Part shown: positions 49,801-64,000 of the stretch, one piece after another
How positions within the stretch are numbered: position 1 is the first letter of the stretch
How the letters are laid out: the number at the start of each line of letters is the position of its first letter
NCBI GenBank assembly: GCA_964535035.1
Contig: CAZHRV010000118.1
Span: 943 to 64,942 of the forward strand
DNA from: an uncultured Rikenellaceae bacterium
GTDB taxonomy: Bacteria; Bacteroidota; Bacteroidia; Bacteroidales; VadinHA17
Reading direction: 5' to 3'
DNA length: 64,000 bases
Position numbers and translations under genes: made by a program
Notes under the pieces: model-generated
Databases searched by the model: none
Seen by the model: the letters and a program-made list of their open reading frames with translations, nothing else
What the model was told of the DNA's origin: nothing

Positions 49801-51257
49801 TTCCGGTTAAACGGAATCCTCTTATAATCACAGGTGAATATATACTCAGAGCCTTAATGGGAATAAGATCTGCAAGTTTAACTGTTACCTCGTCACAGGG
49901 ACAGTACCTCCCGGGTTATATGCCCGGCACAAAATATCTCGGTATGTCTGATTACAACGATGTCACTGCACCGGGCTGGCCATTTATCCTCGGATACAGC
50001 GACAGAAGGTTTTTTGACAGAGCAGTTACCTATGGCTGGCTCTCAACAGATACCCTTCTCAATACCCCGGCAACATATAACAATAAGTTTGATATATCTG
50101 TACGAAGCATGATAGAACCGTTCCCCGGCATGAGGATCGATGTCAATGCCGACAGGAGATTTCTCGAAGGGGTAAGTTCTTATTATATAGCTGATGCTAA
50201 TGGCAATTTCCCCGACAGTACACGCAACAGGATCGTTAACGGAAATTTCTCAATATCAGTCATATCGTGGGGTACTGCATTTGAGAAAATATCAAAAAAG
50301 AATAATTATATTTCTCCCACTTTTGAAGCATTCAAGAAAAACCTGGTAATTATTTCTGAAAGACGGGCAAGGGAAAGATCTGAAGTCGATCCCGAATATA
50401 ATCCTGATATCAATCCAGTTACCGGAGAACCTATGGATGGCCCCTATAAAAGCGGATATGGACAAACTTCAAGGGAGGTAATGATACCTGCGTTTCTTGC
50501 TGCCTACACAAAATCAGATCCTGAAAAGGTGACTCTTGAAACTTTTCCCTCGGCGATGAGGATGATGCCTAACTGGAGAATAACATTTGACGGACTTTCA
50601 AAATTTGAATTTATACAGAGAGTATTCCGATCCATAAATCTCTCACATCAATACAGGAGCACATTCCAGATAGGAAGCTATACAACTAACCTGAACTATC
50701 TTGAGGATACATATGGAATAAGCTCAATAAGAGATCTTCAGAATAACTACATTCAGCAATACGAAATTAATGTTGTAACCATTAATGAACAGTTCAGTCC
50801 CTTAATAAATATTGACATGAACTGGAAAAATAGCCTGACGACCCGGTTTGAATGGAGAAAATCACGTACTGTATCGCTTAACCTTACAAGCAACCAGATT
50901 GCAGATGCCCGTACCAATGAGCTGGTTATTGGTGCCGGATACCGGTTTGATGAGGTACAGATAATACTTAAAACCGGTGGCGGACAGAAAGTGCTTAAAA
51001 GTGATCTGAACCTGCGGTTCGACCTTTCAATCCGTGATAATAAAACACTTGCAAGGAAACTGGTTGAGGATGTAAATCAGCCGGTTGCAGGAGTAAAGGT
51101 ATTTACGGTCGGACTTACTGCCGATTACATCCTGAGTGACAGGTTCAACCTTCAGATCTTTGCCGATCACACTATGAATAATCCTTTTGTGGCAAGTACC
51201 TTCCCTACTTCCAATACAAATTTCGGATTCAGCCTCAAGTTTACTCTTGTACAGTAA
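43827..51257 (+). CDS. sprA: T9SS translocon / gliding motility protein SprA
   Basis: This 2476-aa outer-membrane beta-barrel-type protein has a signal peptide. Its size and sequence character match my recollection of Bacteroidota SprA. It uses a non-ATG (TTG) start, and its C-terminus ends in F-x-L-x-F-T-L-V-Q beta-strand style. Confidence 0.85.
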   Translation: MGSRISHKHILVLLYPVLIASLLFASPEAFSQVSVQTGDTTRKSVLKLEDVSGIPWEQTKKAPLFLDNPSNITSTVIYDPDKNEYVIYKKVGSFDYRTPVHMSPEEYRKYEYTQAMRDYWQSRISGDESGFRSTLIPQIEIGGAAFDKIFGSNTINIIPQGSAELIFGINISRTQNPTLSEKLRTIPTFDFKEKIQMNVTGTIGDKMQLGVNYNTDALFDFENRTKLQYSGKEDEILKKVEAGDVTLPLTGTLITGSYSLFGLKTEMQFGKLTVTTVLSQQKGESSVVQVEGGAQLTDFEIFADEYEANRHFFLSHYFRDIYDEALKSLPIVSSGVNIERIEVWVTNKTSRFEEGSNRNIVAFMDLAENRNHIYNNITEFQETSGTPLYPDNDANRLYEQLNTVYTDVRDVDQVTNAFDPLYPGFQIGRDYEKIENARKLNEREYTLNKQLGYISLNTALNTDEVLAVAFEYTINGKVYKVGEFSTDGITAPQTLFLKLLKGTTLTPKLPTWNLMMKNIYSLGSGKLEKSDFELNVLYQDDETGNSINYLPEDKLEDQILLQMMGLDVLNSQLDRESDGYFDFVDNVTVIVDRGKIVFPVLEPFGSHLRKKINDSRLADKYVFQELYDSTQTIARQMAEKNKFVLEGQYSSQSGSEIQLNAINIPKGSVIVTAGGVTLTENVDYTVDYNMGTVSIINAALIESQTPIQVSLESNQFFGFQTKTLVGTHLDYRFADNFNVGGTILHLNERPYTQKVNYGEEPISNTIWGLNTSYKTESRMLTNIIDNIPLLDTKTPSSFSFFGEFAHLIPGHSKAISNAGNSYIDDFEASEIPLDLKSFNAWTIASIPQGQDFLFPEARFNDDPVTGYNRARLAWYVIDPIFLRNGTSTPDHIKDNPDTQSSHFVREIYENEIFPYRESTTGIPTNITVLNLAYYPDEKGPYNFDTDPGPYSDGMNSEGRLNDPQSRWGGIMREVLTSDFETANIQYIKFWLMDPFVENPDHEGGDLYINLGNISEDILKDSRKSFENGLPGSPDPVNVDTTSWGRVPTVQSVVNAFDNDPDSRLYQDVGFDGLRNQDEQTFFTDYLQKAETITTPEVYSKIFDDPSGDDFHYFRGSNYDYQELGIIERYKNYNGQENNSPTSEMSSEPYPTSGSTLPDMEDINRDNTLNETESYYQYRISIRPGDLVVGTNFIVDEIEYEATFANGDKSSVKWYQFKVPITDYQKVIGTISDFKSVRFMRMFLRGFNEPVIMRYADLDLVRAEWRKYNISFMEGGERITLPEATDGTFEISSVSIEENSGKEPVNYVLPPGFDRITDPSNPQLRQLNEQSMVIKVQNLEDGDARAAFRNVSLDIRQYRRLRMEVHAEALIGQPLMDGELTAFIRIGSDYKSNFYEYEIPLTLTPPGRYDNKSDASRAIVWPEKNSFNIDLSIFQDAKQARNRKLLEEGSSLSVSDVYVYLSEGHRISVSGNPNLSNVKVIMIGIRNPIRTRNPITDDGQPKWGEVWVNELRLNDFIENGGWAANAHLQARLADLGTVDVVGQTSTPGWGSIDKKVNERSKEQVMKYDLSSTIELGKFFPEEVGVRLPVYVGYSETRISPQYNPLDPDILLQDALRNAEDNAARDSIKSISEDFSRRKTITVSNAGISKRGEKPHAWDIANLSVNYTYNEIYRSNIKTEINLEKNYRGGLAYNYQAQPANVAPFKNMKFLNSPVFRLVKDFNFYVFPKSISFRTDLIRYYNEVKTRNINNPYLRITPTYRKDFEWSRIYDFKYDITRQLKIDFTATNLARIDEPEGGVDKERYGNRYDLWRDSVMTNLKNFGRTTTYNHFINATYTIPVNKLPLLSWVNANARFGADYTWLAGPLYPDTMNINIGNSIKNHNELTFTTMANLATLYGKSRFLKNIENNTRPDAAQRRKPEYRTVTYTRNNVNFRPNAVRGIVHSLGTTDIKVKVVSNTGEEVKGNVDIVNSSRINFTTSEQIDGANVTIEGRVPVKRNPLIITGEYILRALMGIRSASLTVTSSQGQYLPGYMPGTKYLGMSDYNDVTAPGWPFILGYSDRRFFDRAVTYGWLSTDTLLNTPATYNNKFDISVRSMIEPFPGMRIDVNADRRFLEGVSSYYIADANGNFPDSTRNRIVNGNFSISVISWGTAFEKISKKNNYISPTFEAFKKNLVIISERRARERSEVDPEYNPDINPVTGEPMDGPYKSGYGQTSREVMIPAFLAAYTKSDPEKVTLETFPSAMRMMPNWRITFDGLSKFEFIQRVFRSINLSHQYRSTFQIGSYTTNLNYLEDTYGISSIRDLQNNYIQQYEINVVTINEQFSPLINIDMNWKNSLTTRFEWRKSRTVSLNLTSNQIADARTNELVIGAGYRFDEVQIILKTGGGQKVLKSDLNLRFDLSIRDNKTLARKLVEDVNQPVAGVKVFTVGLTADYILSDRFNLQIFADHTMNNPFVASTFPTSNTNFGFSLKFTLVQ

Positions 51258-51808: not shown

Positions 51809-52183
51809 ATGAATATACCGGCAGATCTTTTGTACACCAGGGACCATGAATGGCTTCGTATAGAAGGAGATATGGGTTATATTGGAATAACCGACTTTGC
51901 CCAGGGCGAATTGGGGGATATTGTCTTCATTGAAATAGAGACCCAGGGAGAAACCCTTCATAAAGAGGAGGTCTTCGGGACCATTGAAGCAGTAAAAACA
52001 GTATCAGATATGTTTATGCCGGTAGGAGGAGAGATACTTGAAGTTAATCCTGCTCTTGAGGAATCACCTGAGCTTGTGAACAAGGATCCCTATGGAAATG
52101 GCTGGATGGTAAAGATAAAGATTACAGATCCGTCGGAGACCGGTGATCTCCTTTCAGCAGAAAAATATAAGGGGCTTTTATAG
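51809..52183 (+). CDS. gcvH: Glycine cleavage system protein H
   Basis: YTRDHEW and the lipoyl-lysine motif EAVKTVSD are present. The protein is 124 aa. Confidence 0.95.
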
Positions 52184-55054
52184 AGTTTTCTTAACCTCGG
52201 TCTCCTGGTAGCCTTCAATGATGTCACCTGTCTTTATGTCATTGAAATTCTGAATGTTCAGTCCGCATTCATAGCCGCCCACAACCTCTTTGACATCATC
52301 CTTGAAGCGCTTGAGCGATCCAAGTTCTCCGGTATAAATAACAATACCATCACGAATAATACGAACACGGGTATTCCTTGTTATCTTCCCCTCTTTAACA
52401 TAGCATCCCGCAACTGTGCCGACCTTTGTAACTTTAAAGATATCCCTGATCTCAAGAGTTGCAACGATCTCCTCTTTAACCTCGGGGGATAACATACCTT
52501 CCATAGCTGATTTTATCTCCTCTATGGCGTTGTAAATAATGGAATAGAGACGGATATCAATCTCCTCCTTCTCGGCAAGTTTACGGGCTGCAAGAGAAGG
52601 ACGTACCTGGAATCCAACTATAATCGCATTGGATGCGGCAGCAAGCAGTACATCAGATTCCGATATCTGGCCTACAGCCTTATGTATGATATTCAGCTGT
52701 ATCTCGGGAGTTGATAGTTTTATCAGAGAATCACCCAGGGCCTCAACAGATCCGTCGACATCTCCCTTCACTATGATATTAAGTTCCTGGAAATTACCAA
52801 TAGCGATTCTCCTTCCGATCTCATCAAGGGTTATGTGCTTCTGGGTACGAAGACCCTGTTCTCTCTGCAACTGAGCTCTCTTGTTGGCTATGTCTTTGGC
52901 TTCCCTGTCACTCTCCATTACATTGAACTTGTCACCTGCCTGGGGGGCTCCGTTCAGACCGAGGATCAGAGCCGGTGTAGCCGGACCTACCTCAGTAATT
53001 TTGTGGCCTCTTTCATTATACATGGCCTTCACATGTCCGACACAACTTCCGGCAAGCAGTATATCACCAACCCTGAGTGTCCCGGCTTTCACAAGGACAG
53101 TTACAGTAAATCCTCTTCCCTTATCGAGGGATGATTCAATTACTGTACCTAATGCAGACTTATCGGGATTGGCTTTTAATTCCAGCATTTCAGCTTCAAG
53201 CAGGACTTTATCAAGAAGAAGTTCTATATTAAGTCCGTTTTTGGCCGATATTTCCTGCGACTGAAACTTCCCTCCCCAGTCTTCAACCAGGTAATTCATA
53301 TTGGCAAGTGCCTCCTTAATTTTATCGGAATTTGCGGTAGGTTTGTCAATTTTGTTAATAGCAAATACAATAGGCACTCCTGCTGCTGAAGCATGATTTA
53401 TTGCCTCTACTGTCTGGGGCATAACGCCGTCATCAGCTGCGACGACGATTATAGCAATGTCAGTTATCTGTGCTCCACGGGCTCTCATTGCAGTAAAAGC
53501 TTCATGACCCGGTGTGTCAAGAAAGGTGATTTGCCTTCCGTCATCAAGTGTCACACCATATGCTCCTATATGCTGTGTAATACCTCCGGCTTCACCGGCA
53601 ATCACATTAGTCCTGCGTATATAGTCGAGAAGTTTTGTTTTTCCATGATCGACATGTCCCATTACAGTAACAATGGGTGGACGGGACTTTAGGTCTTCAT
53701 CTTCATCATCAACTTCACGAACCGCCTCCTGGAGTTCAGCGCTGACAAACTCTACCTTAAAACCGAATTCATCGGCCAGAAGGGCCATAGTCTCTGCATC
53801 AAGCCTCTGATTGATCGAAACAAAAAGACCAAGATTCATACATGTGGAAATAATTTCGGTAACGGGAATGTCCATCATTATAGACAGCTCATTCACCGAG
53901 ACGAATTCAGTAACCTTCAGAATATTTTTCTGTTGTTCAATCCGGTCTTCATCCTCGCGATGTTTCTGACTTATTGCTTCTCTTTTCTCTCTCCTGTATC
54001 TTGAACCCTTTGATTTACCTTTTGTTGTGAGCCTTGCAAGAGTCTCTTTTATCTGCTTCTGAACCTCTTCTTCATCAACTTCAACCCTTACGGGTCTTTT
54101 CTTTATAACTTTCTTGCCGCCCTTTTCCTTCTTTTCACCCAGGTCTGGCTTCACAGCCGAAACCTGATCTTTATCCTTGGTTATCCTTTTCCTTTTCTTC
54201 TTCCTTCTGGAATCCGGGCTGCCATCTTGTTTTCCCTGCTGGTGAGGACCAGATTTTCTTCTTTCTTCGGCAGGAAGATTTATCTTTCCTATAACCGTGG
54301 GTCCCGATAATTTTGCAATACCTGTTCTGAAAACTTCAACTACCTCTTCTTCCTCAACAGGATAAACTTCCTCATCAATTATCTCTCCTGATTGTAAGCC
54401 GTCGTCACCTTTTGATTCCGTAACAGGCTCTGCAGCTTTCTCTTCCGGTTTCTTGCCTGCATCCTCCTCTGGTCCCCAGACTTTATCTTTACTTTTCTCT
54501 TTACTGGCAGCGGCAGCCTCTTTTTTCAATGTATCATCTTCCTCTTCCGGCGGGACTTTTGTATCAGGTTTTGTTTTTTGCTTTTCAGCTTTCCCCGGCT
54601 CAGTGGGTTTTGATGGTTTCTGTGGTTCCTCTTTAACAGTCTCTTTTTTCACTGTTTTATCAAGATCAATCTTACCAACAAGCTTTATATCCGGCTTCTT
54701 GATATCAGTCTTAATATCAACACCTTTCTGCAGTCCTGTGGCATCTTTGACAATTATCTCCTCATCACTGTTACCTTCTTCAGGCTGTGGCTTTTCAGGA
54801 ACATCTTCAATTGACAGAGTCTCTTTTTTCCTGTGAAGATCCTTGAGAATAAGCTTTTCAGATTCTTTCTTCACGCTTATATCCGAGCTGTACTCTTTCA
54901 CAAGCAGAAGATAAGCTTCGTGGGGAATTTTTGTGTTGGGATTTGGTTCAAGATCAAATCCTTTCTTATGTAAGAAATCTATTATTGTGGAGATCCCTAC
55001 ATTGAACTCCCTGGCCGCTTTACTTAACCGTGTTGCCTTTATATCCTCTGTCAT
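52178..55054 (-). CDS. infB: Translation initiation factor IF-2
   Basis: It has the GTPase motifs [13 protein letters not shown] and NKID, a long Lys/Glu/Pro-rich N-terminal region, and sits downstream of nusA. Confidence 0.95.
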
Positions 55055-55112
55055 AAATATGCCTTGCCTTTTATATTAAATATAGAATCAACCAGTATAA
55101 AAATCAAGGTTG

Positions 55113-56351
55113 TTATTCAAATTCTGCTTTCAATATGTTTACGACTTCCCTTATGGTTTCCTCTTCAAGATCAGTTCTCTTTACCAGGTCACTGATTGAA
55201 AGATTGAGAACGCTTCTGGCAGTATCACAGCCTATAGCCTTAAGCTCATCGATGATCCATTCTTCAATTTCATCGCTGAATTCTTCAAGGTTGACGTCTT
55301 CCTCATCTTCACCACCCGGCTCCCTGTATACATCAATCTCATAGCCTGTAAGCTGGCTTGCAAGCTTAATATTGAGGCCGCCCTTACCGATTGCAAGGGA
55401 CACCTCGCTTGGTTTAAGATATATCTCGGCACTTTTTGTTTCTTCAATCAGCTTGATGGATGTTATCTTTGCCGGACTGAGAGCTCTCTGGATAAAGAGT
55501 TGATTATTTGATGTAAAATTGATAACATCAATATTCTCATTTCGAAGCTCCCTGACGATACCATGTATCCTGGATCCCTTCATTCCGACACATGCACCTA
55601 CCGGGTCAATTCTTTCATCGTATGACTCTACAGCTACTTTTGCCCTTTCCCCCGGGACCCTGACAATCTTTTTTATGGTAATCAGCCCGTCGAAGATCTC
55701 AGGAACTTCAAGTTCGAACAGCCTTTCAAGGAATACGGGTGAAGTACGGCTGAGAATAATAAACGGGGTATTGTTTCTCATTTCAACCTTTATAACCACA
55801 GCCCTTATTGTATCCCCTTTTCTGAAATGATCGGAAGGTATCTGTTCGCTTTTCGGAAGGATGAGCTCATTGCCGTCATCGTCAAGAACCAGTATTTCTC
55901 TTTTCCATACCTGGTAAACTTCACCGGTAACAATCTCACCTATCCTGTCTTTGTATTTCATGTAGATATTGTTCTTCTCAAGATCGAGAATACGTGCAGT
56001 CAGGTTCTGCCTGAGCGATAAAATAGCCCTTCTGCCGAAATCAAGGAACTTAACCTCATCAGATACCTCTTCGCCGACTTCATAATCATCATCAATCTTT
56101 TTGGCTTCCGACAATGGTATCTGGGTTATCGGATCAGTAAGCTCATCATCGTCCACTACTACCCTGTTCCTCCATATCTCAAAGTCACCCTTATCGATAT
56201 TGACAATAATATCGAAATTATCCGCTGAGCCGTACTTTTTGGCAAGCATGCCCCTGAATACATCTTCAAGAACGCTCATCATAGTAGGCCGGTCAATATT
56301 CTTGAGCTCCTTAAATTCCGAAAAGGTGTCTGTCAAATTAACATTTTCCAT
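55113..56351 (-). CDS. nusA: Transcription termination/antitermination factor NusA
   Basis: It shows the S1 and two KH domain patterns (..GEIVTGEV.., ..DPVGACVGMKGSRI.., ..AIGKGGLNIKLA..) and has the rimP-nusA-infB gene order. Confidence 0.95.
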   Translation of the reverse strand: MENVNLTDTFSEFKELKNIDRPTMMSVLEDVFRGMLAKKYGSADNFDIIVNIDKGDFEIWRNRVVVDDDELTDPITQIPLSEAKKIDDDYEVGEEVSDEVKFLDFGRRAILSLRQNLTARILDLEKNNIYMKYKDRIGEIVTGEVYQVWKREILVLDDDGNELILPKSEQIPSDHFRKGDTIRAVVIKVEMRNNTPFIILSRTSPVFLERLFELEVPEIFDGLITIKKIVRVPGERAKVAVESYDERIDPVGACVGMKGSRIHGIVRELRNENIDVINFTSNNQLFIQRALSPAKITSIKLIEETKSAEIYLKPSEVSLAIGKGGLNIKLASQLTGYEIDVYREPGGEDEEDVNLEEFSDEIEEWIIDELKAIGCDTARSVLNLSISDLVKRTDLEEETIREVVNILKAEFE

Positions 56352-56371
56352 CTGGTATTAACCTCTTATAG

Positions 56372-56824
56372 TTATTTAATTGATAATAATTCCTTCGTTG
56401 ATTTTATCTGGTCAAAGTTGAAAGAGATATCCTTCATTTCCTTCACCTTACCCTTGATTTTTACCTCCGTTTCGAGTTCAAAACCGCCATTGGTTACATT
56501 TTTCAGACTTCCGGTAAAGCGTGAGCCTTCATTGTTAACCACCTCAACCTGTTTCCCTTCATTCTTATAGTATTGTTCAATAATCCCGAATGGCATATCT
56601 ATCCCCGGTGATGAGATCTGCAGCTCATAATCTTCCGTGTTACGGTTGAGATTCTTTTCGATATGACGGTGAAGTGCCACACATTCGTCAATATTTATCC
56701 CCTTCATTGTATCAACAAATACCATGATCCTGTTCGCACTGCTTACTCTTACAGCCACAAGGAAAATATCTGTTCCTTTAATGAACTCATTTACAAGCTT
56801 TTCTATTTTACTTATTTCAATCAT
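56372..56824 (-). CDS. rimP: Ribosome maturation factor RimP
   Basis: A ~150-aa protein immediately upstream of nusA. I prefer the ATG at 56824 (MIEISKIEKLVNEF..) because the ORF-track TTG start at 56842 would overlap the T-tract that follows the leader hairpin. Confidence 0.8.
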   Translation of the reverse strand: MIEISKIEKLVNEFIKGTDIFLVAVRVSSANRIMVFVDTMKGINIDECVALHRHIEKNLNRNTEDYELQISSPGIDMPFGIIEQYYKNEGKQVEVVNNEGSRFTGSLKNVTNGGFELETEVKIKGKVKEMKDISFNFDQIKSTKELLSIK

Positions 56825-56837
56825 CGTAAATTCAGAT

Positions 56838-56864
56838 AACAAAATAGGGGACTCTGGTCCCCTA
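56838..56864 (-). terminator. Terminator-like hairpin in the rimP-nusA-infB leader (candidate attenuator)
   Basis: The minus strand reads TAGGGGAC-CAGA-GTCCCCTA (perfect 8-bp stem, 56864-56845) followed by TTTTGTTAT. It ends ~14 nt before the ATG at 56824. Confidence 0.5.
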
Positions 56865-56898: not shown

Positions 56899-57048
56899 AG
56901 TAATGTTTTGGAATATGCAAACTTTGAGATTAATAATAAATTCTCTATGTGGACTTTGTGCTTAACTTTGCCATCTTTGCAGTTATAAGAAAAGTCGAAG
57001 AAGTTGAAGGCCCTCCTTCGCTATCCTTCGACAAGCTCAGGATTTGCT

Positions 57049-57092
57049 TCGGACTTCGTCCGACGCAGCGGACTATGTCCGACGAAGTCGGA
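57049..57092 (+). repeat. Tandem 19-nt hairpin-forming repeat in the leader of the PflX-like gene
   Basis: CGGACTTCGTCCGACGCAG (57050-57068) and CGGACTATGTCCGACGAAG (57069-57087) match at 16/19 positions. The perfect small hairpins are TCGGAC-TTC-GTCCGA (57049-57063), CGGAC-TAT-GTCCG (57069-57081) and TCCGAC-GAA-GTCGGA (57078-57092). Confidence 0.75.
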
Positions 57093-57127
57093 GGGTAACA
57101 GTTGAAGGGAGTTGGAGGAAGTTGAAG

Positions 57128-58069
57128 ATGACAGAAAAGATCTATAATAATAAGGAGCAGGAACTTCTTTCTAACTGCACATTATGTCCGCGCGAATGCG
57201 GAGTCAACAGGTTTGAGGGAGGCAGCGGCTATTGCGGCATGGATGCAGGTATGAATATAGCTTCAATCTGCATTCACAGGGGAGAGGAACCTCCGATAAG
57301 CGGTCCGGGAGGGATTTGCAATATCTTCTTCGCTGGCTGCAATCTGCGCTGCATCTATTGCCAGAATTATGATATAAGCCGGCCGGATGAAACATGCCGG
57401 CGAAGTAAAACGACACTGAAGGAAACACTTGACATTATAGAGAGAATTCTATCAGATGACATTACGACAGTGGGATTTGTTTCCCCCTCACATGTTGTTT
57501 CCCAGGTCAAATCTATTATTCGGGGCCTGAATGAAAGGGGATTGCAGCCTGTAACTGTCTATAATACAAACAGCTATGACAAACCGGAAGTGATAGATGC
57601 TCTTGATGGAATGATCGATGTTTATCTTCCTGATTACAAATATGTGACATCAGGCATTGCAGAAGAATATTCTGATGCACCTGGCTATCCTGAGGTTGCT
57701 CTGAAAGCGCTCAGGAGAATGTATTACCAGAAAGGATCGACACTTACCTGTGATGAAGAGGGCAGGGCAGAGCAAGGAATACTGATACGTCACCTTGTTC
57801 TTCCCGGTCATGCGGATGAAAGTAGAAAAGTTCTTCGGAACATTGCGGAAGAACTTTCACCCGGAATGCATCTCTCACTCATGTCGCAATATCACCCGGT
57901 ACCCTTTGTTAAGGGCCATCCTAAGCTGAATCGAACATTATATAAAGCTGAGTATGAGTCGGTTGCAGAAGCCATGGAAAGCTTTGGTTTCCGGAACGGC
58001 TGGGTGCAGGATATGGACAGTTACAAAAATTACAAGCCCGATTTCAGTAAGGAACAACCGTTTGAGTAA
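57128..58069 (+). CDS. Radical SAM protein, PflX-type (pyruvate formate-lyase activase homologue, COG1313-like)
   Basis: It has CPRECGVNR...GYCG and the radical SAM cluster FAGCNLRCIYCQNYDIS. I prefer the ATG at 57128 (MTEKIYNN..) because the ORF-track extension from 57044 covers the repeat region. Confidence 0.75.
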   Translation: MTEKIYNNKEQELLSNCTLCPRECGVNRFEGGSGYCGMDAGMNIASICIHRGEEPPISGPGGICNIFFAGCNLRCIYCQNYDISRPDETCRRSKTTLKETLDIIERILSDDITTVGFVSPSHVVSQVKSIIRGLNERGLQPVTVYNTNSYDKPEVIDALDGMIDVYLPDYKYVTSGIAEEYSDAPGYPEVALKALRRMYYQKGSTLTCDEEGRAEQGILIRHLVLPGHADESRKVLRNIAEELSPGMHLSLMSQYHPVPFVKGHPKLNRTLYKAEYESVAEAMESFGFRNGWVQDMDSYKNYKPDFSKEQPFE

Positions 58070-58099: not shown

Positions 58100-58816
58100 T
58101 TACATGAATTTCTCCCTCTTCTGCAAATTATACAGTGCTGTCAACAGGAACAAAATCGTCCCAGTTATCAGGATTATCCTGTTTTTCATTGTGATGATTG
58201 CCCATGTAGTTTCACTTACGCCGTAGGCCGGATCGAAGGGATTGAGAAAGACATTCCACTGGCTTTTACGTAGAGGATCCGACAGTATCAGAAAGAAAAG
58301 GCCGAAGATTATCATTGCCACTGCTGTGCCATTTCCGTTTCGGATTACAGTAGATAACATGAAGGACATCATCCCCAGGAAAAGAACAGGCATCATCACT
58401 TGCGTTGTCATTCTCACAATATTGAATTTAACTATCAATACTGAAGAGAGGAATGTGAAAACAAACATTATCAGGTATGCAATCACAAATATCAGGATAA
58501 TCCTCACAAGCCATACTTTATACCTGTAATTCGGGATGCCGAACAGTATTTCGATCGTCCTTGCATCCTGATCATTCTGGACACCAAAAACAGCCGGGTA
58601 AAAGACCAATAATATTCCTGAGAATAAAAATACTCCATACAGGTCCTCCATCCGTGATATATCATTTGAGAATACATAAATGACCGAAAGACCAAGGTAA
58701 AAGACTACCGAACCGGCAAGGAACCAGATGAATTTATTGGCGAAAATGATTTTCAGATTGTAGATTATCATTTTCCAGACCAGGGTAAATGAATTATATA
58801 ATGTGTTGGTTTTCAT
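58100..58816 (-). CDS. ABC-2-type integral membrane permease (six predicted TM segments)
   Basis: The 238-aa hydrophobic protein overlaps the 3' end of the upstream NBD-containing ORF by 23 nt. An alternative start is Met16. Confidence 0.6.
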   Translation of the reverse strand: MKTNTLYNSFTLVWKMIIYNLKIIFANKFIWFLAGSVVFYLGLSVIYVFSNDISRMEDLYGVFLFSGILLVFYPAVFGVQNDQDARTIEILFGIPNYRYKVWLVRIILIFVIAYLIMFVFTFLSSVLIVKFNIVRMTTQVMMPVLFLGMMSFMLSTVIRNGNGTAVAMIIFGLFFLILSDPLRKSQWNVFLNPFDPAYGVSETTWAIITMKNRIILITGTILFLLTALYNLQKREKFM

Positions 58817-61800
58817 TATTTTCCTTTTTTCTTAGCAGCCACAAATAAGCATCCTCCAGATTGGGAGTAGCGGTAACAGCATTCTCCCATGGTTTGGATT
58901 CGGAAATGACTCTGACTCTTACATTATCGCCTTCCGACATATGATGCACTACAAGATGATTCTTTACGAATTTGCTGAATTCTCCTGCCGGAACATGGAA
59001 CTGCCATACATGTCCTTCTGCCTCTTTTGTCATATCGATGGGCTTACCAAGGTATTTTAATTTCCCCTTATCGAGAACTGCAACCTGGTTGCAGGAGCTC
59101 GAGATATCCTCAATGATATGTGTTGAAAATATCACAATACGTTCGCGGCCCAGTTCGACAAGCAGGTTTCGGAACCTTATTCTTTCCCTGGGATCAAGAC
59201 CGGCTGTCGGCTCATCAACAACAAGGATCCTTGGCAGATGAAGGAGTATCTGTGCAATACCCATTCTCTGCTTCATCCCTCCTGAATAAGAACCTATTTT
59301 TTCATGCCTTCGGTCCTCCATATGTACTGCATTAAGAACGAAGGTCACTCTTTCATCCCTCACCTTTTTGTCAATGATATTTTTCAGCATTGCCTGGTAA
59401 TGCAGGTATTCGTGAGCAGTCATATTCTCATAGCTTCCGAATTCCTGTGGCAGATAGCCTATCAGCCCCTGGAGCTCCTCGCGTTTTTCAAGAGTATCAA
59501 GACCATTGATCCACACTTTACCGTAACTCTGTTCCAGGATGCCGCAGATTATCCTCATAAGAGTTGTTTTACCAGCTCCGTTTGGTCCCAGAAGTCCGAA
59601 CATTCCACTGCCGATGTTCAACGATACACAGCTTAGGGCTTTGAAGGGTTTCTTCTTTTTTCCGATAAGGGGAACTGCTGCAACGATCCTGTAAACGGTT
59701 TTTCTCAGTCCTCTGAACCTTCCTTCAAGCCTGTATATATCAATGTTTTCATTGCTGAGCTTTTGACCGGTTCTGTAAATAAACAGACCGGAGAACCATA
59801 AGAATCCGAGGATCAGCACAACAGCAATGTTATCCCATCTTAGCTGGAAGAGTATCAGGTTTAGCAAGGGTATTATCCAGAAAACAAATAGATCAATTCC
59901 GGAAATTATCTTTTTCATGAACAGGCTTTTTGTCCGGGAGGTCATATTGGTGAAGAGCTCCCTTAACGGATTCCATATGGCTGAGAGGAAGAACCATGTG
60001 CCGATACTGAAAATAAATATCCAGAATCCTTTATTCAGGTAAAAATAGGTAAAGTAAACCATGAAGATGAACAGGGGAAGCTGCCAAATAATCTGTACCA
60101 TATCTTTCCACTGCCTGAAATGCCGTTTGAGATCCAGCCTGGCTCTTATTCTGGCACCAGCTTTCCATTCCCTCAGCCAGCGATTCTCCCTGTCATAAAT
60201 CTTTACCAGGCTTTGAACATGGATATTTATTTTTTCATCAGGCGAAATCACCGTCTCTCTCGCTTTCCTGAGGCTGTTCATTATGAACCATGTTGCTGCA
60301 GGTACAAGAATTATGCTGAGTATTGTTGTGATAAGCTTCCAGAGAAATTTGTCTATATAAGTGTAAATCAAAAAAATAAGCAGGGTAAAAACGATCAGTT
60401 GGATTGCTTTGTTTTTCCACTCAAGCGATTTTAGCCACTCCAGTGTATTCTCAAGTCCTGAATAGAATGTAGGGATAAAAACAAGTGTAAGAAGTGTGCT
60501 GAGCGACAGTCCGCCGATAACTGTTATTGCAAATGACGCACCTATGACTGATACGAATTCAGCTTTACCCATAGCCAGCGGAAACATGGCTATTACTGTT
60601 GTGGAAGCTGTAATAAGTATCGGTCTTATTCTTGCAACGCCTGCTGACATTAACGCCCGTGAACGGCGGTTGCCCCTTTTTCTCAAGATATTGGTATAAT
60701 CGATAAGGATAATACCATTATTGACAACTACTCCCAGCAGGATCAGGAATCCTGTAAGAGTGTTTGCATTCAAAAGGGAATTTCCTGTAAGTATAAGAGC
60801 TATAAGCGATCCCAGTGCGGCAAGGGGAATGCTGAAGAGAAGGACAAATGGTATAACAAGCGACTCAAATACGGCGGCAAGGATCATGTAAATGAGAATG
60901 AATGCAATACCTATAAGCTTGTAAAAATCCTTAAGCTGGTCCTCTTCATGTACAACCTCAACTGCAATGCCGGCTGGTATGTTCAAATCGGCAACAACAG
61001 ATTCGATCTCTGCTCTTGCTATTTCAAGGAGATCTTTGTCTGATCTTATTTCGGAATTGAAATTATATGTAACTGTGACTCTCTTCTCCTGGTTTTCCCT
61101 GTGAATATTACCAGATCCGTAAGCGAAGATGATATCAGCCAGTTCCTCCATTTCCATTATGGCTTCGCCAGTACTGCTTACCTCTAGCCGTCTCAGGTCA
61201 TCAATCGTCTTATCGGTGTTTTTTGCCAGTGTGTCCTCATCTGAATATTTGATTATTATATCATAGCTTTCGGTACCCTGCCTGAATGTTGCTCCCGAGG
61301 AATATTCGTTTCCGAAAGATGCCAAAGCTGAAGAGAGACCCATAAGGGTGATGTTGTTTCTCCCGATGTAATCCATATCAAAATATAGCTGAACCTCGGG
61401 CTTATTGTCCTGGATATTCAGGCTCACATTTTCTATTGAAGAAAGATCATCAATATAGGTTTTGATATCGTCGGCAAAGTTTTTCATCTGTTCAAAGTTC
61501 TGTCCCTTGATAATCACACTCTCGCTTTGTGATCCGATACCCAGCATATTCATAAATCCGGCTCCCGGATTCACTGTTTCGCCGCTGCCGCCGGCAGTAA
61601 AACCGCCGCCTGTAGATATATCATCCATACTTATTTCAGCAGAAGGAATATTTTTTGTCCTTTCCAGGATATCATTTTTAATTTCGGGGAGGCTCCTTTT
61701 GCTTATTCTATCCCACTCTTCCGGCAGATTGATTGTAACAGTAGCCTGTTCCTCTTCGATACGGCTTACAATATCCTCTTTCTCTGGTATGGAGGCAAGC

Positions 61801-63545
61801 CTTGATTCAATCTCTGTTACCACCGCATCGGTCTTCTCAAGGGTTGATCCTGAGGGCATTGTCACACTTAACCTGAAATCAGGAGTGTTTATTTCCTGCG
61901 GCGTGCTCAGACTTAGTGTCAGGCTTATCAGAAGTGCAGCGAAGAAGATTATGAGTGTACCGATAATTGTTAAGGCAGGTTTTCTCATACTAGCTTTAAG
62001 AACAAGATGATACCCCTGGATCAGCCTGTCGTGGATAGAAAGCTTTTTGAATATTTCCGACTTGCCTCCGGAGCTCCCGGAAAGCAGAAAATAGGTAGCC
62101 ATCGGTATAAAAAGAAGCGCGACCGCAAGTGAGACCAGCAATGTTGATATTATGGAAACACCAATGTTTTTCCCGATGATCTTTATAAGGAAATTTGAAG
62201 AAAAAATAAAGGGAAAGAAGACCATGATGGTCGTAAGTGTTGATGCGAGAATAGCCTTCCACACCTCGGTAGTGCCCTGTTTGACAGAGGTTCTGTAATC
62301 CATGCCTGTACCGGCAAGACGATAGGTATTCTCGAGTACCACCACCGAGTTGTCAACAAGCATTCCTATGGCAAGGGCCACACCGACAAGAGTCAGGCTG
62401 TTTATTGTAATGTTGTAGGCATAAAAGAAATTGAAGGCTGCATATACTGAAATAGGTATTGAGACAGCAATAATTGTAACAAGCCTGATATTCCTGAGAA
62501 AAAACCAGAGAATGATAACTGCCAGTATAGCACCGGTGATGGCAAGTTTGATTATCTGATTGATATTCTCCTCCATTGTTTCGGCACTGTTATACTGGAC
62601 TACAATATCAACTCCTGCAGGAGCAAGTGTTTTATTAAGGGCATTTACCTGTTCAAGGGCATCGTGTGACAGTTTTATAAGATTGGCCTGGTTATCATTT
62701 ACCAGGTTAATAGTAACGGCATCCATTCCGTTAACCCTGCTAAAGGATGTCTGTTCCTTGACACCATAAAATATTTCGGCGATATCCTGCAGCAGAACAG
62801 GCCCCTCCTGTTTTACTGTTATACTGCCAATATCCTTTACATCAGTATATTCAGAGGTTATATTTACAAAAAACTCATTACTCCCATCAACGACCTTGCC
62901 TGCAAATGTCTTCTCACTGCCATTATTGTTAAGCAGTGTCCTTATCTGTCCCATTGTGATCCCAAGAGCTTTGCATGCCTTTTCGTTAAGACGGACCTCA
63001 ATTGAATTCTCCTGACCTCCGTAAACCTGAACACCGGCAATACCGTCGATATTCTCAAATTTGGGTTTGATCTCCCTGTCTGAGATGTTCCTGATCCTGT
63101 CAACTCCGCCTTCGCCTCTCACCTGAAGCGACATGAACTGGTTTGTAAGCTGTTCAAGGTCTATTTTAATAACATTGACAATGAACTCGTCGGGTATTGA
63201 ACTCTTTACTATATCTATCTTCTCCTGGAGCTTAAGATAGGCATATTTGAGATCGGCATTCTGATTGTAATAGATCACTATTGTTCCATATCTGGAGGAG
63301 ATATTCGATTCTATCTTCTCAATGCCTTCAAGTGTTCCTGCCGCACCTTCAAGAGGTATAATAGCCTGTGCTTCAATATACGACGGATCCATTTCAAGGG
63401 GAGTGGCCACCTGTACTATCAATGCCGGAAGCTGGGCATTCGGTATCAATTCCACGGATAGTTTCTTATAAGAGATGAAACCGAGCATTGCCAGCCCGAT
63501 AAACAGCATACTGATGAGGATCCTTCTCTTTAAAATAAAATCCAT
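58794..63545 (-). CDS. Chimeric transporter: complete AcrB-type RND permease, six additional TM segments and an ABC ATPase domain in one 1583-aa ORF
   Basis: RND motifs are GMLVDNSVVVLEN and GVVVNNGIILIDY, with 12 TM segments and two large loops. The NBD has Walker A GPNGAGKTT (59562-59588), LPQE, the signature YSGGMKQR, Walker B ILVVDEPTAGLD and STHIIED. Confidence 0.8.
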   Translation of the reverse strand: MDFILKRRILISMLFIGLAMLGFISYKKLSVELIPNAQLPALIVQVATPLEMDPSYIEAQAIIPLEGAAGTLEGIEKIESNISSRYGTIVIYYNQNADLKYAYLKLQEKIDIVKSSIPDEFIVNVIKIDLEQLTNQFMSLQVRGEGGVDRIRNISDREIKPKFENIDGIAGVQVYGGQENSIEVRLNEKACKALGITMGQIRTLLNNNGSEKTFAGKVVDGSNEFFVNITSEYTDVKDIGSITVKQEGPVLLQDIAEIFYGVKEQTSFSRVNGMDAVTINLVNDNQANLIKLSHDALEQVNALNKTLAPAGVDIVVQYNSAETMEENINQIIKLAITGAILAVIILWFFLRNIRLVTIIAVSIPISVYAAFNFFYAYNITINSLTLVGVALAIGMLVDNSVVVLENTYRLAGTGMDYRTSVKQGTTEVWKAILASTLTTIMVFFPFIFSSNFLIKIIGKNIGVSIISTLLVSLAVALLFIPMATYFLLSGSSGGKSEIFKKLSIHDRLIQGYHLVLKASMRKPALTIIGTLIIFFAALLISLTLSLSTPQEINTPDFRLSVTMPSGSTLEKTDAVVTEIESRLASIPEKEDIVSRIEEEQATVTINLPEEWDRISKRSLPEIKNDILERTKNIPSAEISMDDISTGGGFTAGGSGETVNPGAGFMNMLGIGSQSESVIIKGQNFEQMKNFADDIKTYIDDLSSIENVSLNIQDNKPEVQLYFDMDYIGRNNITLMGLSSALASFGNEYSSGATFRQGTESYDIIIKYSDEDTLAKNTDKTIDDLRRLEVSSTGEAIMEMEELADIIFAYGSGNIHRENQEKRVTVTYNFNSEIRSDKDLLEIARAEIESVVADLNIPAGIAVEVVHEEDQLKDFYKLIGIAFILIYMILAAVFESLVIPFVLLFSIPLAALGSLIALILTGNSLLNANTLTGFLILLGVVVNNGIILIDYTNILRKRGNRRSRALMSAGVARIRPILITASTTVIAMFPLAMGKAEFVSVIGASFAITVIGGLSLSTLLTLVFIPTFYSGLENTLEWLKSLEWKNKAIQLIVFTLLIFLIYTYIDKFLWKLITTILSIILVPAATWFIMNSLRKARETVISPDEKINIHVQSLVKIYDRENRWLREWKAGARIRARLDLKRHFRQWKDMVQIIWQLPLFIFMVYFTYFYLNKGFWIFIFSIGTWFFLSAIWNPLRELFTNMTSRTKSLFMKKIISGIDLFVFWIIPLLNLILFQLRWDNIAVVLILGFLWFSGLFIYRTGQKLSNENIDIYRLEGRFRGLRKTVYRIVAAVPLIGKKKKPFKALSCVSLNIGSGMFGLLGPNGAGKTTLMRIICGILEQSYGKVWINGLDTLEKREELQGLIGYLPQEFGSYENMTAHEYLHYQAMLKNIIDKKVRDERVTFVLNAVHMEDRRHEKIGSYSGGMKQRMGIAQILLHLPRILVVDEPTAGLDPRERIRFRNLLVELGRERIVIFSTHIIEDISSSCNQVAVLDKGKLKYLGKPIDMTKEAEGHVWQFHVPAGEFSKFVKNHLVVHHMSEGDNVRVRVISESKPWENAVTATPNLEDAYLWLLRKKENNENQHII

Positions 63546-63559
63546 TTCTCTCTTATAAA

Positions 63560-64000
63560 TTAAAAAGGATCGGCTGCAGCTATTCTTTTTCCTCTTGCAA
63601 AGCTGCTGAAAGTATCAAAAACCCAGTAAACACATGGAATCACCACCAGGGTGAGAAGAGTAGACGAAAAGAGACCACCTATTACTGCCATTGCCATCGG
63701 GGCTCTCAACGATGCACTTTCTCCAATCCCTATTGTCAGAGGCAGCAGAGCCAGGATAGTCGTTATGCTTGTCATCAGAATAGGTCTGATACGTTGTGAC
63801 CCTGCAAGTATTACAGCCTCTTTTTTGTTCATTCCCCCTTCCCTAAGCTGATTTATGCGGTCAATAAGGATTATCGCATTATTTACTGCGATACCGCCCA
63901 GCATTATTATCCCTATATATGCCATCATATTAAGGGACTTGCCAAAAAAGAAGAATGTCAGTATTGTTCCAATTCCGGCCAGAGGGATGGTGAGCATAAT
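63560..64000 (-). CDS. RND efflux permease, C-terminal part only (5' end beyond the window)
   Basis: GGIAVNNAIILIDRINQLR...RIRPILMTSITTILALLPL is the TM10-12 region of AcrB-family proteins. The frame is open to the window edge. Confidence 0.85.
   Translation of the reverse strand: MMLTIPLAGIGTILTFFFFGKSLNMMAYIGIIMLGGIAVNNAIILIDRINQLREGGMNKKEAVILAGSQRIRPILMTSITTILALLPLTIGIGESASLRAPMAMAVIGGLFSSTLLTLVVIPCVYWVFDTFSSFARGKRIAAADPF

Follow-up and report, generated by a model that had tools for sequence, protein, structure and literature searches.

RND pumps are antiporters that work as trimers and draw on the proton-motive force, whereas ABC exporters, the textbook separate solution to efflux, are dimeric and driven by ATP. 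In AcrAB-TolC two-stage efflux, an inner-membrane transporter delivers substrates to the periplasm or outer leaflet, from which the RND pump removes them, and D408 of AcrB is thought to cycle in its protonation (PMC8277102). In the YbhGFSR system of E. coli, an adaptor goes with two ATPase domains and with two six-TM permeases that differ from each other (PMC7190983). MacB has a fold of its own with a periplasmic domain and differs from other ABC transporters whose structure has been characterized (PMC5985334).

Regarding the locus described here, one ORF in the window, which is the whole 64-kb stretch of DNA that was analyzed, encodes a bona fide hybrid of an RND permease and an ABC ATPase, which is predicted from its sequence to be catalytically competent and to serve as the central subunit of a conserved envelope exporter made up of seven parts. 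The first-pass annotation of this DNA had proposed an RND permease fused to an ABC half-transporter; the fusion, its conservation, and its partners were substantiated, but the half-transporter label was not. A literature search found no published description of the fusion or of the seven-gene system, in line with the initial impression that the architecture was unfamiliar among described transporters, and database entries are annotated only as "efflux RND transporter permease subunit" or "ABC domain-containing protein".

Results

Fusion gene and neighboring genes

The fusion ORF is unbroken from ATG to TAA in the ORF translation of the window, as originally read (Table 1), and a stop-free run of this length has a probability of approximately 1e-42 by chance, as computed at 42.5% GC. 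We found nothing in support of a sequencing or assembly artefact or a pseudogene, in which a stop codon or frameshift was missed between the RND and ABC parts. The window sequence is free of unusual indels at the RND/ABC junction, which upholds the reading frame called there, and collinear full-length proteins were present in hundreds of independent assemblies (JGI, ENA, NCBI, and Logan), on contigs of 1-8 Mb, and in a cultured bacterium, Portibacter marinus, as the RefSeq protein WP_235298211.1. These hundreds of collinear assemblies effectively refute the artefact, the chance of which we regard as negligible, and the fusion is a genuine gene.

Table 1. Positions of the fusion gene, its parts, and its neighbors in the window
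Feature	Position	Strand	Basis
RND1, C-terminal 146 aa (TM10-12), unfused RND paralogue	63560..64000	-	ACR_tran; gene cut by window end
RND2::ATPase fusion gene	58794..63545	-	1583 aa + stop codon; domain matches, full-length homologues
RND permease domain, aa 1-1035	60441..63545	-	ACR_tran, 12 TM helices, two periplasmic loops
TM13-TM14 helical hairpin, aa 1043-1096	60258..60419	-	AlphaFold2, hydropathy
Displaced beta-1 strand and A-loop, aa 1108-1117, IHVQSLVKIY (predicted)	60195..60224	-	Conservation, AlphaFold2, paralogue, splice test
Membrane insertion in ATPase, aa 1122-1290 (predicted)	59676..60182	-	Amphipathic helix, four long TM helices, interfacial helix
ATPase core, aa 1301-1510	59016..59645	-	ABC_tran; Walker A, Q-loop, signature, Walker B + catalytic Glu, H-loop
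C-terminal beta-rich ATPase domain, aa 1513-1575	58821..59009	-	AlphaFold2, Foldseek; ends in conserved P.LEDAYL motif
Small six-TM ABC-2-type permease, 238 aa (predicted)	58100..58816	-	Hydropathy; profile comparison of orthologues

The fusion is tightly flanked on both sides, as the first-pass annotation had described. Upstream, the stop codon of another RND permease, RND1 (63560-63562), lies 14 nt before the fusion ATG; its fragment in the window covers ACR_tran model positions 892-1020 (E 2.6e-42), full-length RND1 proteins at the same position in relatives are 1015-1057 aa long, and RND1 shares 27% identity with the RND part of the fusion (RND2). Downstream, the start of the small six-TM permease overlaps the 3' end of the fusion by 23 nt. 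This permease has no Pfam or NCBIfam match itself; three of ten orthologues match ABC2_membrane_2/3 (E ~2e-5), and hhalign comparison gave probabilities of 93% with an ABC-2 permease that Pfam recognizes and 90.5% with the N-terminal domain of the large partner described below. By orthologue matches and profile comparison, it is probably a divergent ABC-2 permease. The 64-kb window contains no MFP or OMF; these had been suspected to lie beyond position 64000, and both are found in relatives upstream, just past the equivalent of the window end.

RND permease part

The RND part was recognized over its full length by Pfam ACR_tran (aa 2-1029, model positions 3-1018 of 1021, E 2.7e-159), with a score of 532.3 bits against a cut-off of 28. 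In a hydropathy scan, 12 TM segments and large loops at aa ~28-326 and ~551-870 were found; these periplasmic loops are placed after TM1 and TM7, and the alignment is collinear with MdtB. The family match and hydropathy agree with the complete AcrB-type permease with 12 hydrophobic segments that was first proposed, and the motifs GMLVDNSVVVLEN (D398/N399) and GVVVNNGIILIDY are present. The closest solved structures are MdtB (9lyq, E 1.6e-64), ZneA, MdtF, CmeB, MexB, and AcrB. None of the curated NCBIfam RND families (RND_permease_2, MdtB, MdtC, and CusA/CzcA) scored above its cut-off; the best match, RND_permease_2, reached 444.9 bits against 1250, while MdtB reached 252.9 against 1584 and MdtC 248 against 1774.

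TM4 carries D398-N399, TM10 carries N942-N943, and TM11 carries R972 and T979. Compared with the HAE-1 proton relay (D407-D408, K940, R971, and T978), D408 is replaced by N399 and K940 by N942, while D398, R972, and T979 occupy relay positions that are retained. The D407-equivalent Asp, R972, and T979 are invariant in 15 distant fusions (A2) and at least 90% conserved in 100 sequences (A4), and the TM4 Asp-Asn pair together with the TM10 Asn is likewise invariant in 15 distant fusions and at least 90% conserved in 100 diverse sequences. Unfused RND pumps from Acetoanaerobium and Pontibacillus (Firmicutes) and the unfused RND1 show the same D-N/N-N pattern, which is therefore a trait of the subfamily and not a result of gaining an ATPase.

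ATPase part and additional helices

Every motif of the complete ABC nucleotide-binding domain called in the first reading was recovered: Walker A GPNGAGKT (K1326), the Q-loop LPQ (Q1367), the signature YSGGM (S1421), Walker B ILVVDE (D1444/E1445), and the H-loop STH (H1476), with a Pfam ABC_tran match over aa 1308-1448 (E 1.4e-27, 97.4 bits against a cut-off of 25). On proper alignment these motifs are not degenerate, the catalytic residues being invariant in 100 diverse sequences; taken together with the conserved TM4 and TM10 residues of the RND part, this argues that both modules work. The nearest relatives of the ATPase are ABCA1/3/4/7, TM_1403, TM0544, and NosF. The DrrA, GldA, and RbbA models all match it, which places it in the ABC-2 class, at scores below the equivalog cut-offs of GldA (176.2 against 402.6 bits) and DrrA (162.1 against 312.45 bits). 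In the C-terminal domain, AlphaFold2 placed strands at 478-512 and a helix at 528-537 of its model, E529 and Y532 are invariant, and Foldseek alignments to TM_1403 (4yer) and NosF (7osf/7o0y) span both the ATPase and this domain.

Considering sequence and model together, the ATPase is predicted to be split, with a membrane insertion of four helices lying between its first strand and the remainder of the domain. Approximately 183 residues, including four TM helices, separate beta-1 from beta-2 (aa ~1301), and the domain is not contiguous. In the candidate beta-1/A-loop segment, K1115 is invariant and Y1117 at least 90% conserved, and AlphaFold2 predicted a strand at 73-82 of its model (beta-1) within a block of pLDDT 98. 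In NBD', the free ATPase paralogue of the cluster, beta-1 is contiguous with beta-2, and when the insertion was removed in silico from the fused protein, the GldA match started at model position 2 instead of 12, with a gain of 5.4 bits. We know of no described ABC ATPase with a TM insertion between the A-loop strand and P-loop.

Regarding the hydrophobic segments that follow the RND part, six TM helices were found as first noted, but not as the uninterrupted run that had been proposed, because they are arranged as two plus four around beta-1: two TM helices, beta-1 with the A-loop tyrosine, the four-helix insertion, and the remaining ATPase. In the AlphaFold2 model of the helix bundle and ATPase (pLDDT 91.7, pTM 0.83), TM13 and TM14 are helices 8-28 and 32-61 (pLDDT 93-95), and this hairpin, with basic residues after TM14, brings the chain back to the cytoplasm; the insertion comprises helices 87-101, 111-134, 138-170, 173-202, 205-231, and 243-255. 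The high pTM suggests that the helix bundle and ATPase may form a rigid unit, a prediction that would be equally compatible with direct mechanical coupling.

A canonical ABC half-transporter was not supported, because the fused helices do not form a recognized ABC membrane-domain fold. Comparison with the two ABC-2 domains of the same system by hhalign gave a probability of only 0.1-0.2%, a Foldseek search of the PDB returned no credible match for the helix bundle, with only the ATPase aligning well and the long ABCA alignments having an rmsd of ~14-25 A, and the helices are split by beta-1.

Distribution of the fusion

The full-length fusion is genuine and strongly conserved, which answers the homologue search that had been proposed. 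Hundreds of full-length homologues of 1390-1670 aa were found, including more than 120 clusters at 78-95% identity with a coverage of 97-100% and no fewer than 35 full-length representatives at the 50% level, with identity down to ~32%. They occur in at least nine phylum-level groups; those named are from Bacteroidota (with Portibacter marinus/lacus as further members), Acidobacteriota, Gemmatimonadota, KSB1, Calditrichota, Latescibacteria, Omnitrophota, Sumerlaeota, and MAGs of Pseudomonadales/Gammaproteobacteria (marine Gammaproteobacteria). Two distinct architectures both retain the RND-ATPase junction. In the long form the connectors are short and of conserved length, whereas the short form lacks the membrane insertion and the extra 2+4 helices and has a long RND-to-ATPase connector without TM helices, which is of low complexity in P0168; such a connector is easier to reconcile with tethering than with the rigid transmission of force. 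The homologues included no clear case of an orthologous arrangement without the fusion, P0133 and P0152 being ambiguous.

Conserved gene cluster in relatives

The unit of RND permease, fusion, and ABC-2 permease read from the window stood as observed, but it is incomplete, because NBD' and an ABC-2 permease of ~1100 aa also belong to it. The order in relatives is NBD', the large ABC-2 permease, (OMF), MFP, RND1, RND2::ATPase, and the small ABC-2 permease, and the cluster is conserved in L001, L082-L084, L087, L092, L093, L064, L021, and L002-L007. NBD' is 42% identical to the fused ATPase with all motifs intact. The large permease carries a non-catalytic M1-peptidase-like (M1-like)/Golvesin periplasmic region of ~800 aa, and its N-terminal domain and the small permease appear to be paralogous ABC-2 domains. 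A MacB/FtsX-type membrane domain with a periplasmic domain was not detected in any cluster protein.

The tandem RND gene and small permease accompany the fusion in all examined loci but one, so that the co-conservation raised in the first-pass annotation holds. The small permease is downstream of the fusion in 15 of 16 long-form loci reaching past the fusion stop (L064 is cut before it), and the MFP is upstream in 15 of 16 long-form loci with a long enough flank (L002 is not among them; the MFP is absent in L094). An OEP lies within the cluster in L001, L083, L087, L092, and L085; thus, MFP and OMF are encoded alongside the permease in relatives, as in a tripartite system. In one KSB1 genome, no partner of the fusion gene lies within 10 kb of it. 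At the loci examined, no biosynthetic or regulatory neighbor was seen to be conserved. Gene adjacency is NBD'-large ... fusion-small in the long form and NBD'-small ... large-fusion in the short form, and this swap suggests that the four ABC parts act together.

Discussion

The mechanism that we tentatively put forward, with somewhat less than an even chance of being correct, is two-stage export by a heteromeric ABC-2 exporter of the YbhFSR kind that is tethered to a heteromeric, MdtBC-like RND tripartite pump. The two ATPases and two paralogous ABC-2 membrane proteins would form a YbhFSR-like ATP-driven exporter that extracts or flips a substrate at the inner membrane and would be held against an RND1/RND2 heterotrimer because one ATPase is covalently tied to RND2. 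The heterotrimer may then pick up the substrate in the outer leaflet or periplasm and expel it through the adaptor and outer-membrane channel, so that the two-stage cooperation known between inner-membrane transporters and RND tripartite pumps would here be hard-wired. RND1 and RND2 could plausibly form an MdtBC-like heteromer, though they are not orthologues of MdtBC. The mismatch of a trimeric RND with a dimeric ABC module may be settled, by assumption, by two RND1 and one RND2 with an NBD'/NBD heterodimer, or alternatively by one RND1 and two RND2 with an NBD homodimer.

Besides tethered two-stage export, the fused ATPase may act through a rigid six-helix bundle on the RND TM domain and replace or gate proton-driven cycling, with the ABC-2 proteins as scaffolds. 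The covalent link, the short long-form connectors of conserved length, the confident prediction of helix bundle and ATPase as one unit (pTM 0.83), and the incomplete AcrB relay (D408 to N399 and K940 to N942) point in this direction; however, the D-N/N-N pattern is shared with unfused pumps and RND1, the D407-equivalent Asp, R972, and T979 stay conserved, the short-form connector is long, without TM helices, and of low complexity in P0168, and mere scaffolding would hardly account for the co-conservation of two bona fide ABC-2 membrane proteins. We thus consider an ATP-powered or ATP-gated RND pump to be unlikely. It is slightly less likely still that the ATPase senses ATP or drives the assembly or quality control of a heteromeric RND pump without moving a substrate. 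ABC-2 modules with non-transport roles exist, and the C-terminal domain resembles the regulatory domains of NosF, TM_1403, and ABCA proteins, but a second complete ATPase and two co-conserved ABC-2 permeases, one with a periplasmic region of ~800 aa, constitute the parts list of a transporter, and every catalytic motif is invariant.

The loss of a stop codon may also have joined two transporters of one operon that still work separately. The cluster genes overlap or abut, which makes a read-through fusion mechanically easy, and the fusion gene stands alone in the KSB1 genome; nevertheless, the fusion is kept across at least nine phylum-level groups to ~30% identity, both architectures retain the RND-ATPase junction, the long form has gained helices of its own as well as the insertion within its ATPase, and a clear unfused orthologous arrangement was not found (P0133 and P0152 aside). 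We regard this uncoupled fusion as improbable. A more ambitious reading, which we hold to be possible though doubtful, is a previously unrecognized class of envelope-spanning exporter in which ATP hydrolysis and the RND cycle are coupled in one covalent complex. If so, the RND1/RND2 heterotrimer would solve the trimer/dimer symmetry by presenting a defined number of fused ATPases to the heteromeric ABC-2 module, the split, membrane-inserted ATPase would transmit conformational changes directly between the ABC and RND membrane domains, and the result would be a dual-energized pump, not two pumps side by side.

A covalent hybrid that is conserved and has a seven-gene system of its own represents a natural "Rosetta stone" linking RND and ABC machines, and suggests that they can be physically and functionally joined. 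The system gives a direct route to studying the passage of substrates from inner-membrane transporters into RND tripartite pumps, and to seeing how three-fold and two-fold machines might be matched. The family is widespread in environmentally dominant, poorly studied phyla, and its presence in the cultured Portibacter marinus makes experiments feasible.

Comparison with known systems

Similar to MdtABC and MuxABC-OpmB, two tandem RND genes lie behind a single adaptor gene, the solved structure closest to the RND part is that of MdtB, and a heterotrimer would offer a natural way of presenting one or two fused ATPases. Unlike MdtBC, to which it is not orthologous by the NCBIfam scores (253 and 248 bits against cut-offs of 1584 and 1774), the present pair is only 27% identical, its relay is D-N/N instead of DD/K, and one paralogue has 550 extra residues with an ATPase. 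With MacAB-TolC, the system shares an ABC ATPase, adaptor, and outer-membrane factor, which would likewise cooperate to expel substrates taken from the periplasmic side; however, its ATPase belongs to the ABC-2 class, searches detected no domain of the MacB/FtsX type, and the conduit-forming inner-membrane component is presumably the RND protein.

NosFY, TM_1403, and ABCA-type proteins provide the best sequence and fold matches for the ATPase and C-terminal domain, and NosFY also pairs with a periplasmic partner. Their beta-1 is contiguous with the rest of the domain, whereas that of the fusion is predicted to be displaced, and the matches returned all lack both a TM insertion between beta-1 and beta-2 and a fusion to an RND protein.

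YbhGFSR sets a precedent for two ATPase domains and two permeases with an adaptor (PMC7190983); as in that operon, two ATPase domains, two paralogous ABC-2 permeases, and an MFP are encoded together, and the fused ATPase is of the same class, as judged by the DrrA, GldA, and RbbA models. It differs in that its ATPases are fused to each other and not to an RND protein, which it lacks, while here one permease has the M1-like/Golvesin region of ~800 aa and a large loop is missing from the other. AcrAB-TolC two-stage efflux follows the functional logic that is proposed for the present system; its known partners are separate, unlinked proteins, whereas here one ATPase is covalently joined to an RND subunit within one gene cluster.

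Results

The gene encoding an RND permease joined to an ABC ATPase (RND2::ATPase, the fusion) is a single unbroken ORF, as stated in the first-pass annotation. It runs from ATG to TAA, and the probability of a stop-free run of this length at 42.5% GC was approximately 1e-42. Its RND part matched Pfam ACR_tran over model positions 3-1018 of 1021 (E 2.7e-159), and its ABC part matched ABC_tran (E 1.4e-27). All of the motifs listed earlier were found in the ORF, and a hydropathy scan reproduced the 12 RND helices and six additional helices. The tight packing described for the adjacent genes was also confirmed: a hydrophobic ORF (the small permease) overlaps the end of the fusion by 23 nt, and the C-terminus of a second, unfused RND permease (RND1) stops 14 nt 5' of the fusion ATG. 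In the window, the transporter cluster is flanked by housekeeping genes, namely, a radical-SAM-like ORF on the opposite strand followed by rimP-nusA-infB. The radical-SAM-like ORF is convergent with the small permease, with ~30 nt separating the stop codons, and its score is under the Radical_SAM cut-off (29.5) and over the Fer4_12 cut-off (22). A promoter and terminator scan of the operon 3' end yielded nothing informative. Since SprA, the type 9 secretion translocon, is encoded in the window, the host is regarded as a member of Bacteroidota.

Features of the fusion, its window surroundings and its long-form gene cluster
Feature	Location	Strand	Length	Remarks
SprA	43827-51257	+	2476 aa	full SprA_N domain, E 8.9e-209
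rimP-nusA-infB operon	52178-56842	-		downstream of transporter cluster
Radical-SAM-like ORF	57044-58069	+	341 aa	weak Radical_SAM and Fer4_12 matches, 28.3 bits each
Small permease, window	58100..58816		238 aa
Fusion, window	58794..63545	-	1583 codons
RND part	aa 2-1029			ACR_tran
TM13 and TM14	aa ~1043-1096			after RND TM12
IHVQSLVKIY	aa 1108-1117			in short cytoplasmic stretch after TM14
Amphipathic helix plus 4 long TM helices	aa ~1122-1290			followed by recognisable ATPase
ABC part	aa 1308-1448			ABC_tran
NBD'			295-331 aa	ABC ATPase, first in long-form cluster
Large protein	L001:728-4222, L087:986-4261, L082:1272-4676, L092:1985-5461		1091-1176 aa (~1100 aa)	conserved, second in long-form cluster
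OMF				some loci only, between large protein and MFP or sometimes last
MFP				before RND1
RND1			1015-1057 aa	before RND2::ATPase
Small permease, orthologues			231-261 aa	after RND2::ATPase

When 5.8 billion protein clusters were searched with the fusion, more than 120 matched with 78-95% identity, in line with the earlier view of the fusion as one polypeptide; all were 1563-1604 aa with 97-100% query coverage and both Pfam domains, and they originated from JGI, ENA, NCBI and Logan assemblies. The closest relatives to the window among the matches listed were uncultured Rikenellaceae/Bacteroidales (85-92% identity), and the exact sequence was absent from a collection of 15 billion proteins. In an exhaustive HMMER scan of 1.84 billion representatives (50%-identity clustering), for which the query was the C-terminal 548 aa only, the best 150 matches contained at least 35 full-length fusion representatives, down to ~32% identity, in many of which the match ran on through the linker helices. 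A profile built from distant members collected another 120 clusters (1398-1667 aa) with names from Acidobacteria, Gemmatimonadetes, candidate division KSB1, Calditrichaeota and Latescibacteria, some on contigs of 1-8 Mb. Fusions of the long form, which carries the extra TM helices, were present in cultured Portibacter marinus (WP_235298211.1) and P. lacus, and the fusion was also found in marine Pseudomonadales/Gammaproteobacteria MAGs. This breadth was drawn from the cluster, HMMER and profile searches; a genome-contig scan was swamped by generic ABC motifs and served as a sample only. Judging from these sequences, the fusion is real and not an artefact, and it represents a conserved hybrid with strong constraint on both modules.

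The C-terminal 550 residues had been interpreted as an ABC half-transporter, which was not supported in the canonical sense: the six extra helices are split into two and four instead of forming a single block. A cryptic ABC-2 membrane domain was rejected on an hhalign probability of 0.1-0.2%, which shows no relation to ABC-2 domains, and on Foldseek, which gave no credible match to the helix bundle; the ATPase and C-terminal beta-rich domain matched TM_1403, NosF, ABCA1/3/4/7 and LptB. Four lines of evidence identified IHVQSLVKIY as beta-1 of the ATPase together with the aromatic residue of the A-loop. Across phyla, K1115 does not vary, and Y1117 is kept in at least 90% of sequences. In short-form proteins, which lack the extra TM helices, the beta-2/P-loop segment follows the same motif after only ~25-60 non-membrane residues, and the two pieces are contiguous in NBD', the cluster's stand-alone ATPase paralogue. 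In-silico excision of the insertion shifted the start of the GldA model alignment from 12 to 2 with a gain of 5.4 bits. In the AlphaFold2 model of the C-terminal part (100-sequence alignment; pLDDT 91.7, pTM 0.83), residues 73-82 form a beta-strand inside a block with pLDDT 98, and this strand would have to pair with those of the ATPase, since the model has no others. A segment upstream of the P-loop, VYRIVAAVPLIG, was considered as beta-1 from a phmmer alignment to ABCA1 and was dropped in favor of aa 1108-1117, considering that AlphaFold2 placed a helix right before beta-2, that the GldA model preferred the distal strand, and that K1115 and Y1117 are conserved. The charge distribution obeys the positive-inside rule for the proposed topology. 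The predicted layout is RND (12 TM), 2 TM, beta-1, a 4-TM insertion, ATPase and C-terminal domain, and the fused ATPase is split and membrane-inserted. Two proteins in the 50%-identity library (P0133, 526 aa; P0152, 501 aa) resemble the 2TM-beta1-4TM-ATPase portion without the RND part; they may be true split genes or pieces cut off at contig ends.

The neighbors of the long form, of which RND1 and the small permease had earlier been described as one unit with the fusion, belong to a conserved seven-part system in the order NBD', large protein, outer-membrane factor (OMF, where present), periplasmic adaptor (MFP), RND1, fusion and small permease. This order, which was read only where the locus flank was long enough, was seen on a 978-kb metagenome contig (L001), in P. 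marinus (L087), Gemmatimonadetes (L092), Acidobacteria (L093) and Calditrichaeota (L083), on genome-scale contigs (L082 and L084), and in a gammaproteobacterial MAG (L064). Shorter flanks, in six Bacteroidales/Rikenellaceae/Carboxylicivirga loci and one Pseudomonadales locus, showed MFP-RND1-fusion-small permease as far as they reached, and L002 covered just the fusion end and small permease. The short form (1389-1488 aa) was found in Omnitrophota and Sumerlaeota (L009, L019, L085 and L086, the loci of P0394, P0400 and relatives), with merely a short non-membrane insertion after beta-1. Its cluster contains the same parts permuted (MFP, NBD', small ABC-2, RND1, large protein, fusion and OMF), and its large protein (880-960 aa) has weak homology to the long-form counterpart (E 7e-7). 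The cluster has a fixed parts list, and no conserved biosynthetic neighbor was seen in the loci examined.

Two loci differed in their arrangement. The junction between RND1 and the fusion, which is otherwise tight as a rule, is broken in the Calditrichaeota locus by two small genes (L083:7814-8642), one encoding 108 aa without a match and the other 161 aa with a PNPOx domain. In KSB1 (L094:10001-14794, GCA_974014315.1), the fusion gene stands alone with no partner gene within 10 kb, and its neighbors include HNH, HEPN/nucleotidyltransferase and AbiEi-like genes.

Regarding the ABC partners, the large protein has an ABC-2-like membrane domain at its N-terminus, together with an M1-peptidase-like region and Golvesin_C, and matched no NCBIfam family. 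Activity as an M1 peptidase was excluded because both the HExxH and GxMEN motifs are absent. The window copy of the small permease had no Pfam match of its own, and three of ten orthologues matched ABC2_membrane_2/3. Its profile matched a Pfam-positive ABC-2 permease with 93% probability and the N-terminal domain of the large protein with 90.5% probability over 220 columns (hhalign), and gave only spurious ARF1 matches against PDB sequences; a single-sequence AlphaFold2 model (pLDDT 60.5, pTM 0.30) was set aside. The matches of the orthologues and of the profile to ABC-2 proteins point to an ABC-2 permease. NBD' and the fused ATPase share 42% identity with all motifs intact in both. Together with the profile matches, this indicates that the ABC-2 membrane domains and the ATPases of the system each form a paralogous pair. 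The proposal that NBD' is the nearest paralogue of the fused domain was rejected, since generic stand-alone relatives among the matches listed showed 38-46% identity.

The nearest solved structure to the RND part was MdtB (E 1.6e-64), followed by ZneA, MdtF, CmeB, MexB and AcrB. The AcrB relay consists of D407, D408, K940, R971 and T978, and D408 is thought to cycle protonation, according to PMC8277102. In the alignment to MdtB, the fusion has D398-N399 as the TM4 pair and retains R972 and T979. The TM10 position that we take to be that of K940 in AcrB numbering is N942. With D398-N399 and N942 instead of D407-D408 and K940, the protein departs from the canonical HAE-1 relay. A loss of proton coupling specific to the fused RND was rejected as an explanation because RND1 and stand-alone RNDs from Acetoanaerobium noterae and Pontibacillus share the D-N (TM4)/N-N (TM10) pattern, which is thus a subfamily trait and no specific sign of the ATPase replacing proton coupling. 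A Shinella RND pump has the DD/K pattern. The remaining TM4 Asp is invariant in 15 distant fusions and at least 90% conserved over a 100-sequence set. RND1 and RND2 share just 27% identity and are not orthologues of MdtB/MdtC. The stand-alone Firmicutes RNDs (L088 and L089, replicons of A. noterae and Pontibacillus sp.) have the single-Asp VDN in TM4 and VNN in TM10, and this sharing suggests a large RND subfamily with energy coupling that may be unlike the AcrB paradigm.

Discussion

The best reading of the system, which we hold tentatively, is tethered two-stage export by ABC-2 and RND machinery. YbhFSR joins a pair of ATPase domains to two distinct six-TM permeases, with an adaptor in the operon as well (PMC7190983), and the four ABC parts of the fusion cluster would similarly compose one ATP-driven ABC-2 exporter. 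Gene adjacency is swapped between the long and short forms, which argues for cooperation of the four parts instead of two fixed pairs. Since one ATPase belongs to RND2, the exporter would be held against an RND1/RND2 heterotrimer, in which a 2:1 or 1:2 RND ratio would match three-fold to two-fold symmetry. At the inner membrane, the ABC step may move or extract the substrate, which the RND-adaptor-OMF conduit would then carry outside from the outer leaflet or periplasm. The covalent link would hard-wire the synergy that PMC8277102 describes for inner-membrane transporters working with RND tripartite pumps.

ATP may instead drive or gate the RND directly through a rigid helix bundle. The long-form model, with its high pTM, and the conserved length of the long-form connectors are consistent with this, whereas the short form, with a long connector that has no TM helices, favors tethering; we consider direct coupling unlikely. 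It is rather improbable that the ATPase is a regulatory or assembly module, and fusion without any coupling appears quite improbable. With full-length homologues recovered across phyla, an artefact is scarcely conceivable.

Database names for the fusion proteins were generic only. No description of an RND-ABC fusion was found in the full-text literature covered, to which most subscription-journal papers and TCDB do not belong, so that an earlier mention may exist; none was found in the passages covered from a comprehensive 2021 review of tripartite systems. The protein fits the RND and ABC ATPase superfamilies. It lacks the HAE-1 relay chemistry and a contiguous ATPase domain, and it falls outside all of the curated NCBIfam equivalogs and outside canonical half-transporters. 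Among the closest systems, MdtABC likewise has two RND paralogues, YbhGFSR is a heteromeric ABC-2 system with an adaptor, MacAB-TolC is an ATP-driven tripartite pump, and NosFY/TM_1403/ABCA represent the nearest ATPase class, and none of these joins both superfamilies. The fusion system is a variation on known kinds in a combination undescribed in the literature covered, and would represent a new class of system if ATP and the RND cycle are mechanically coupled.
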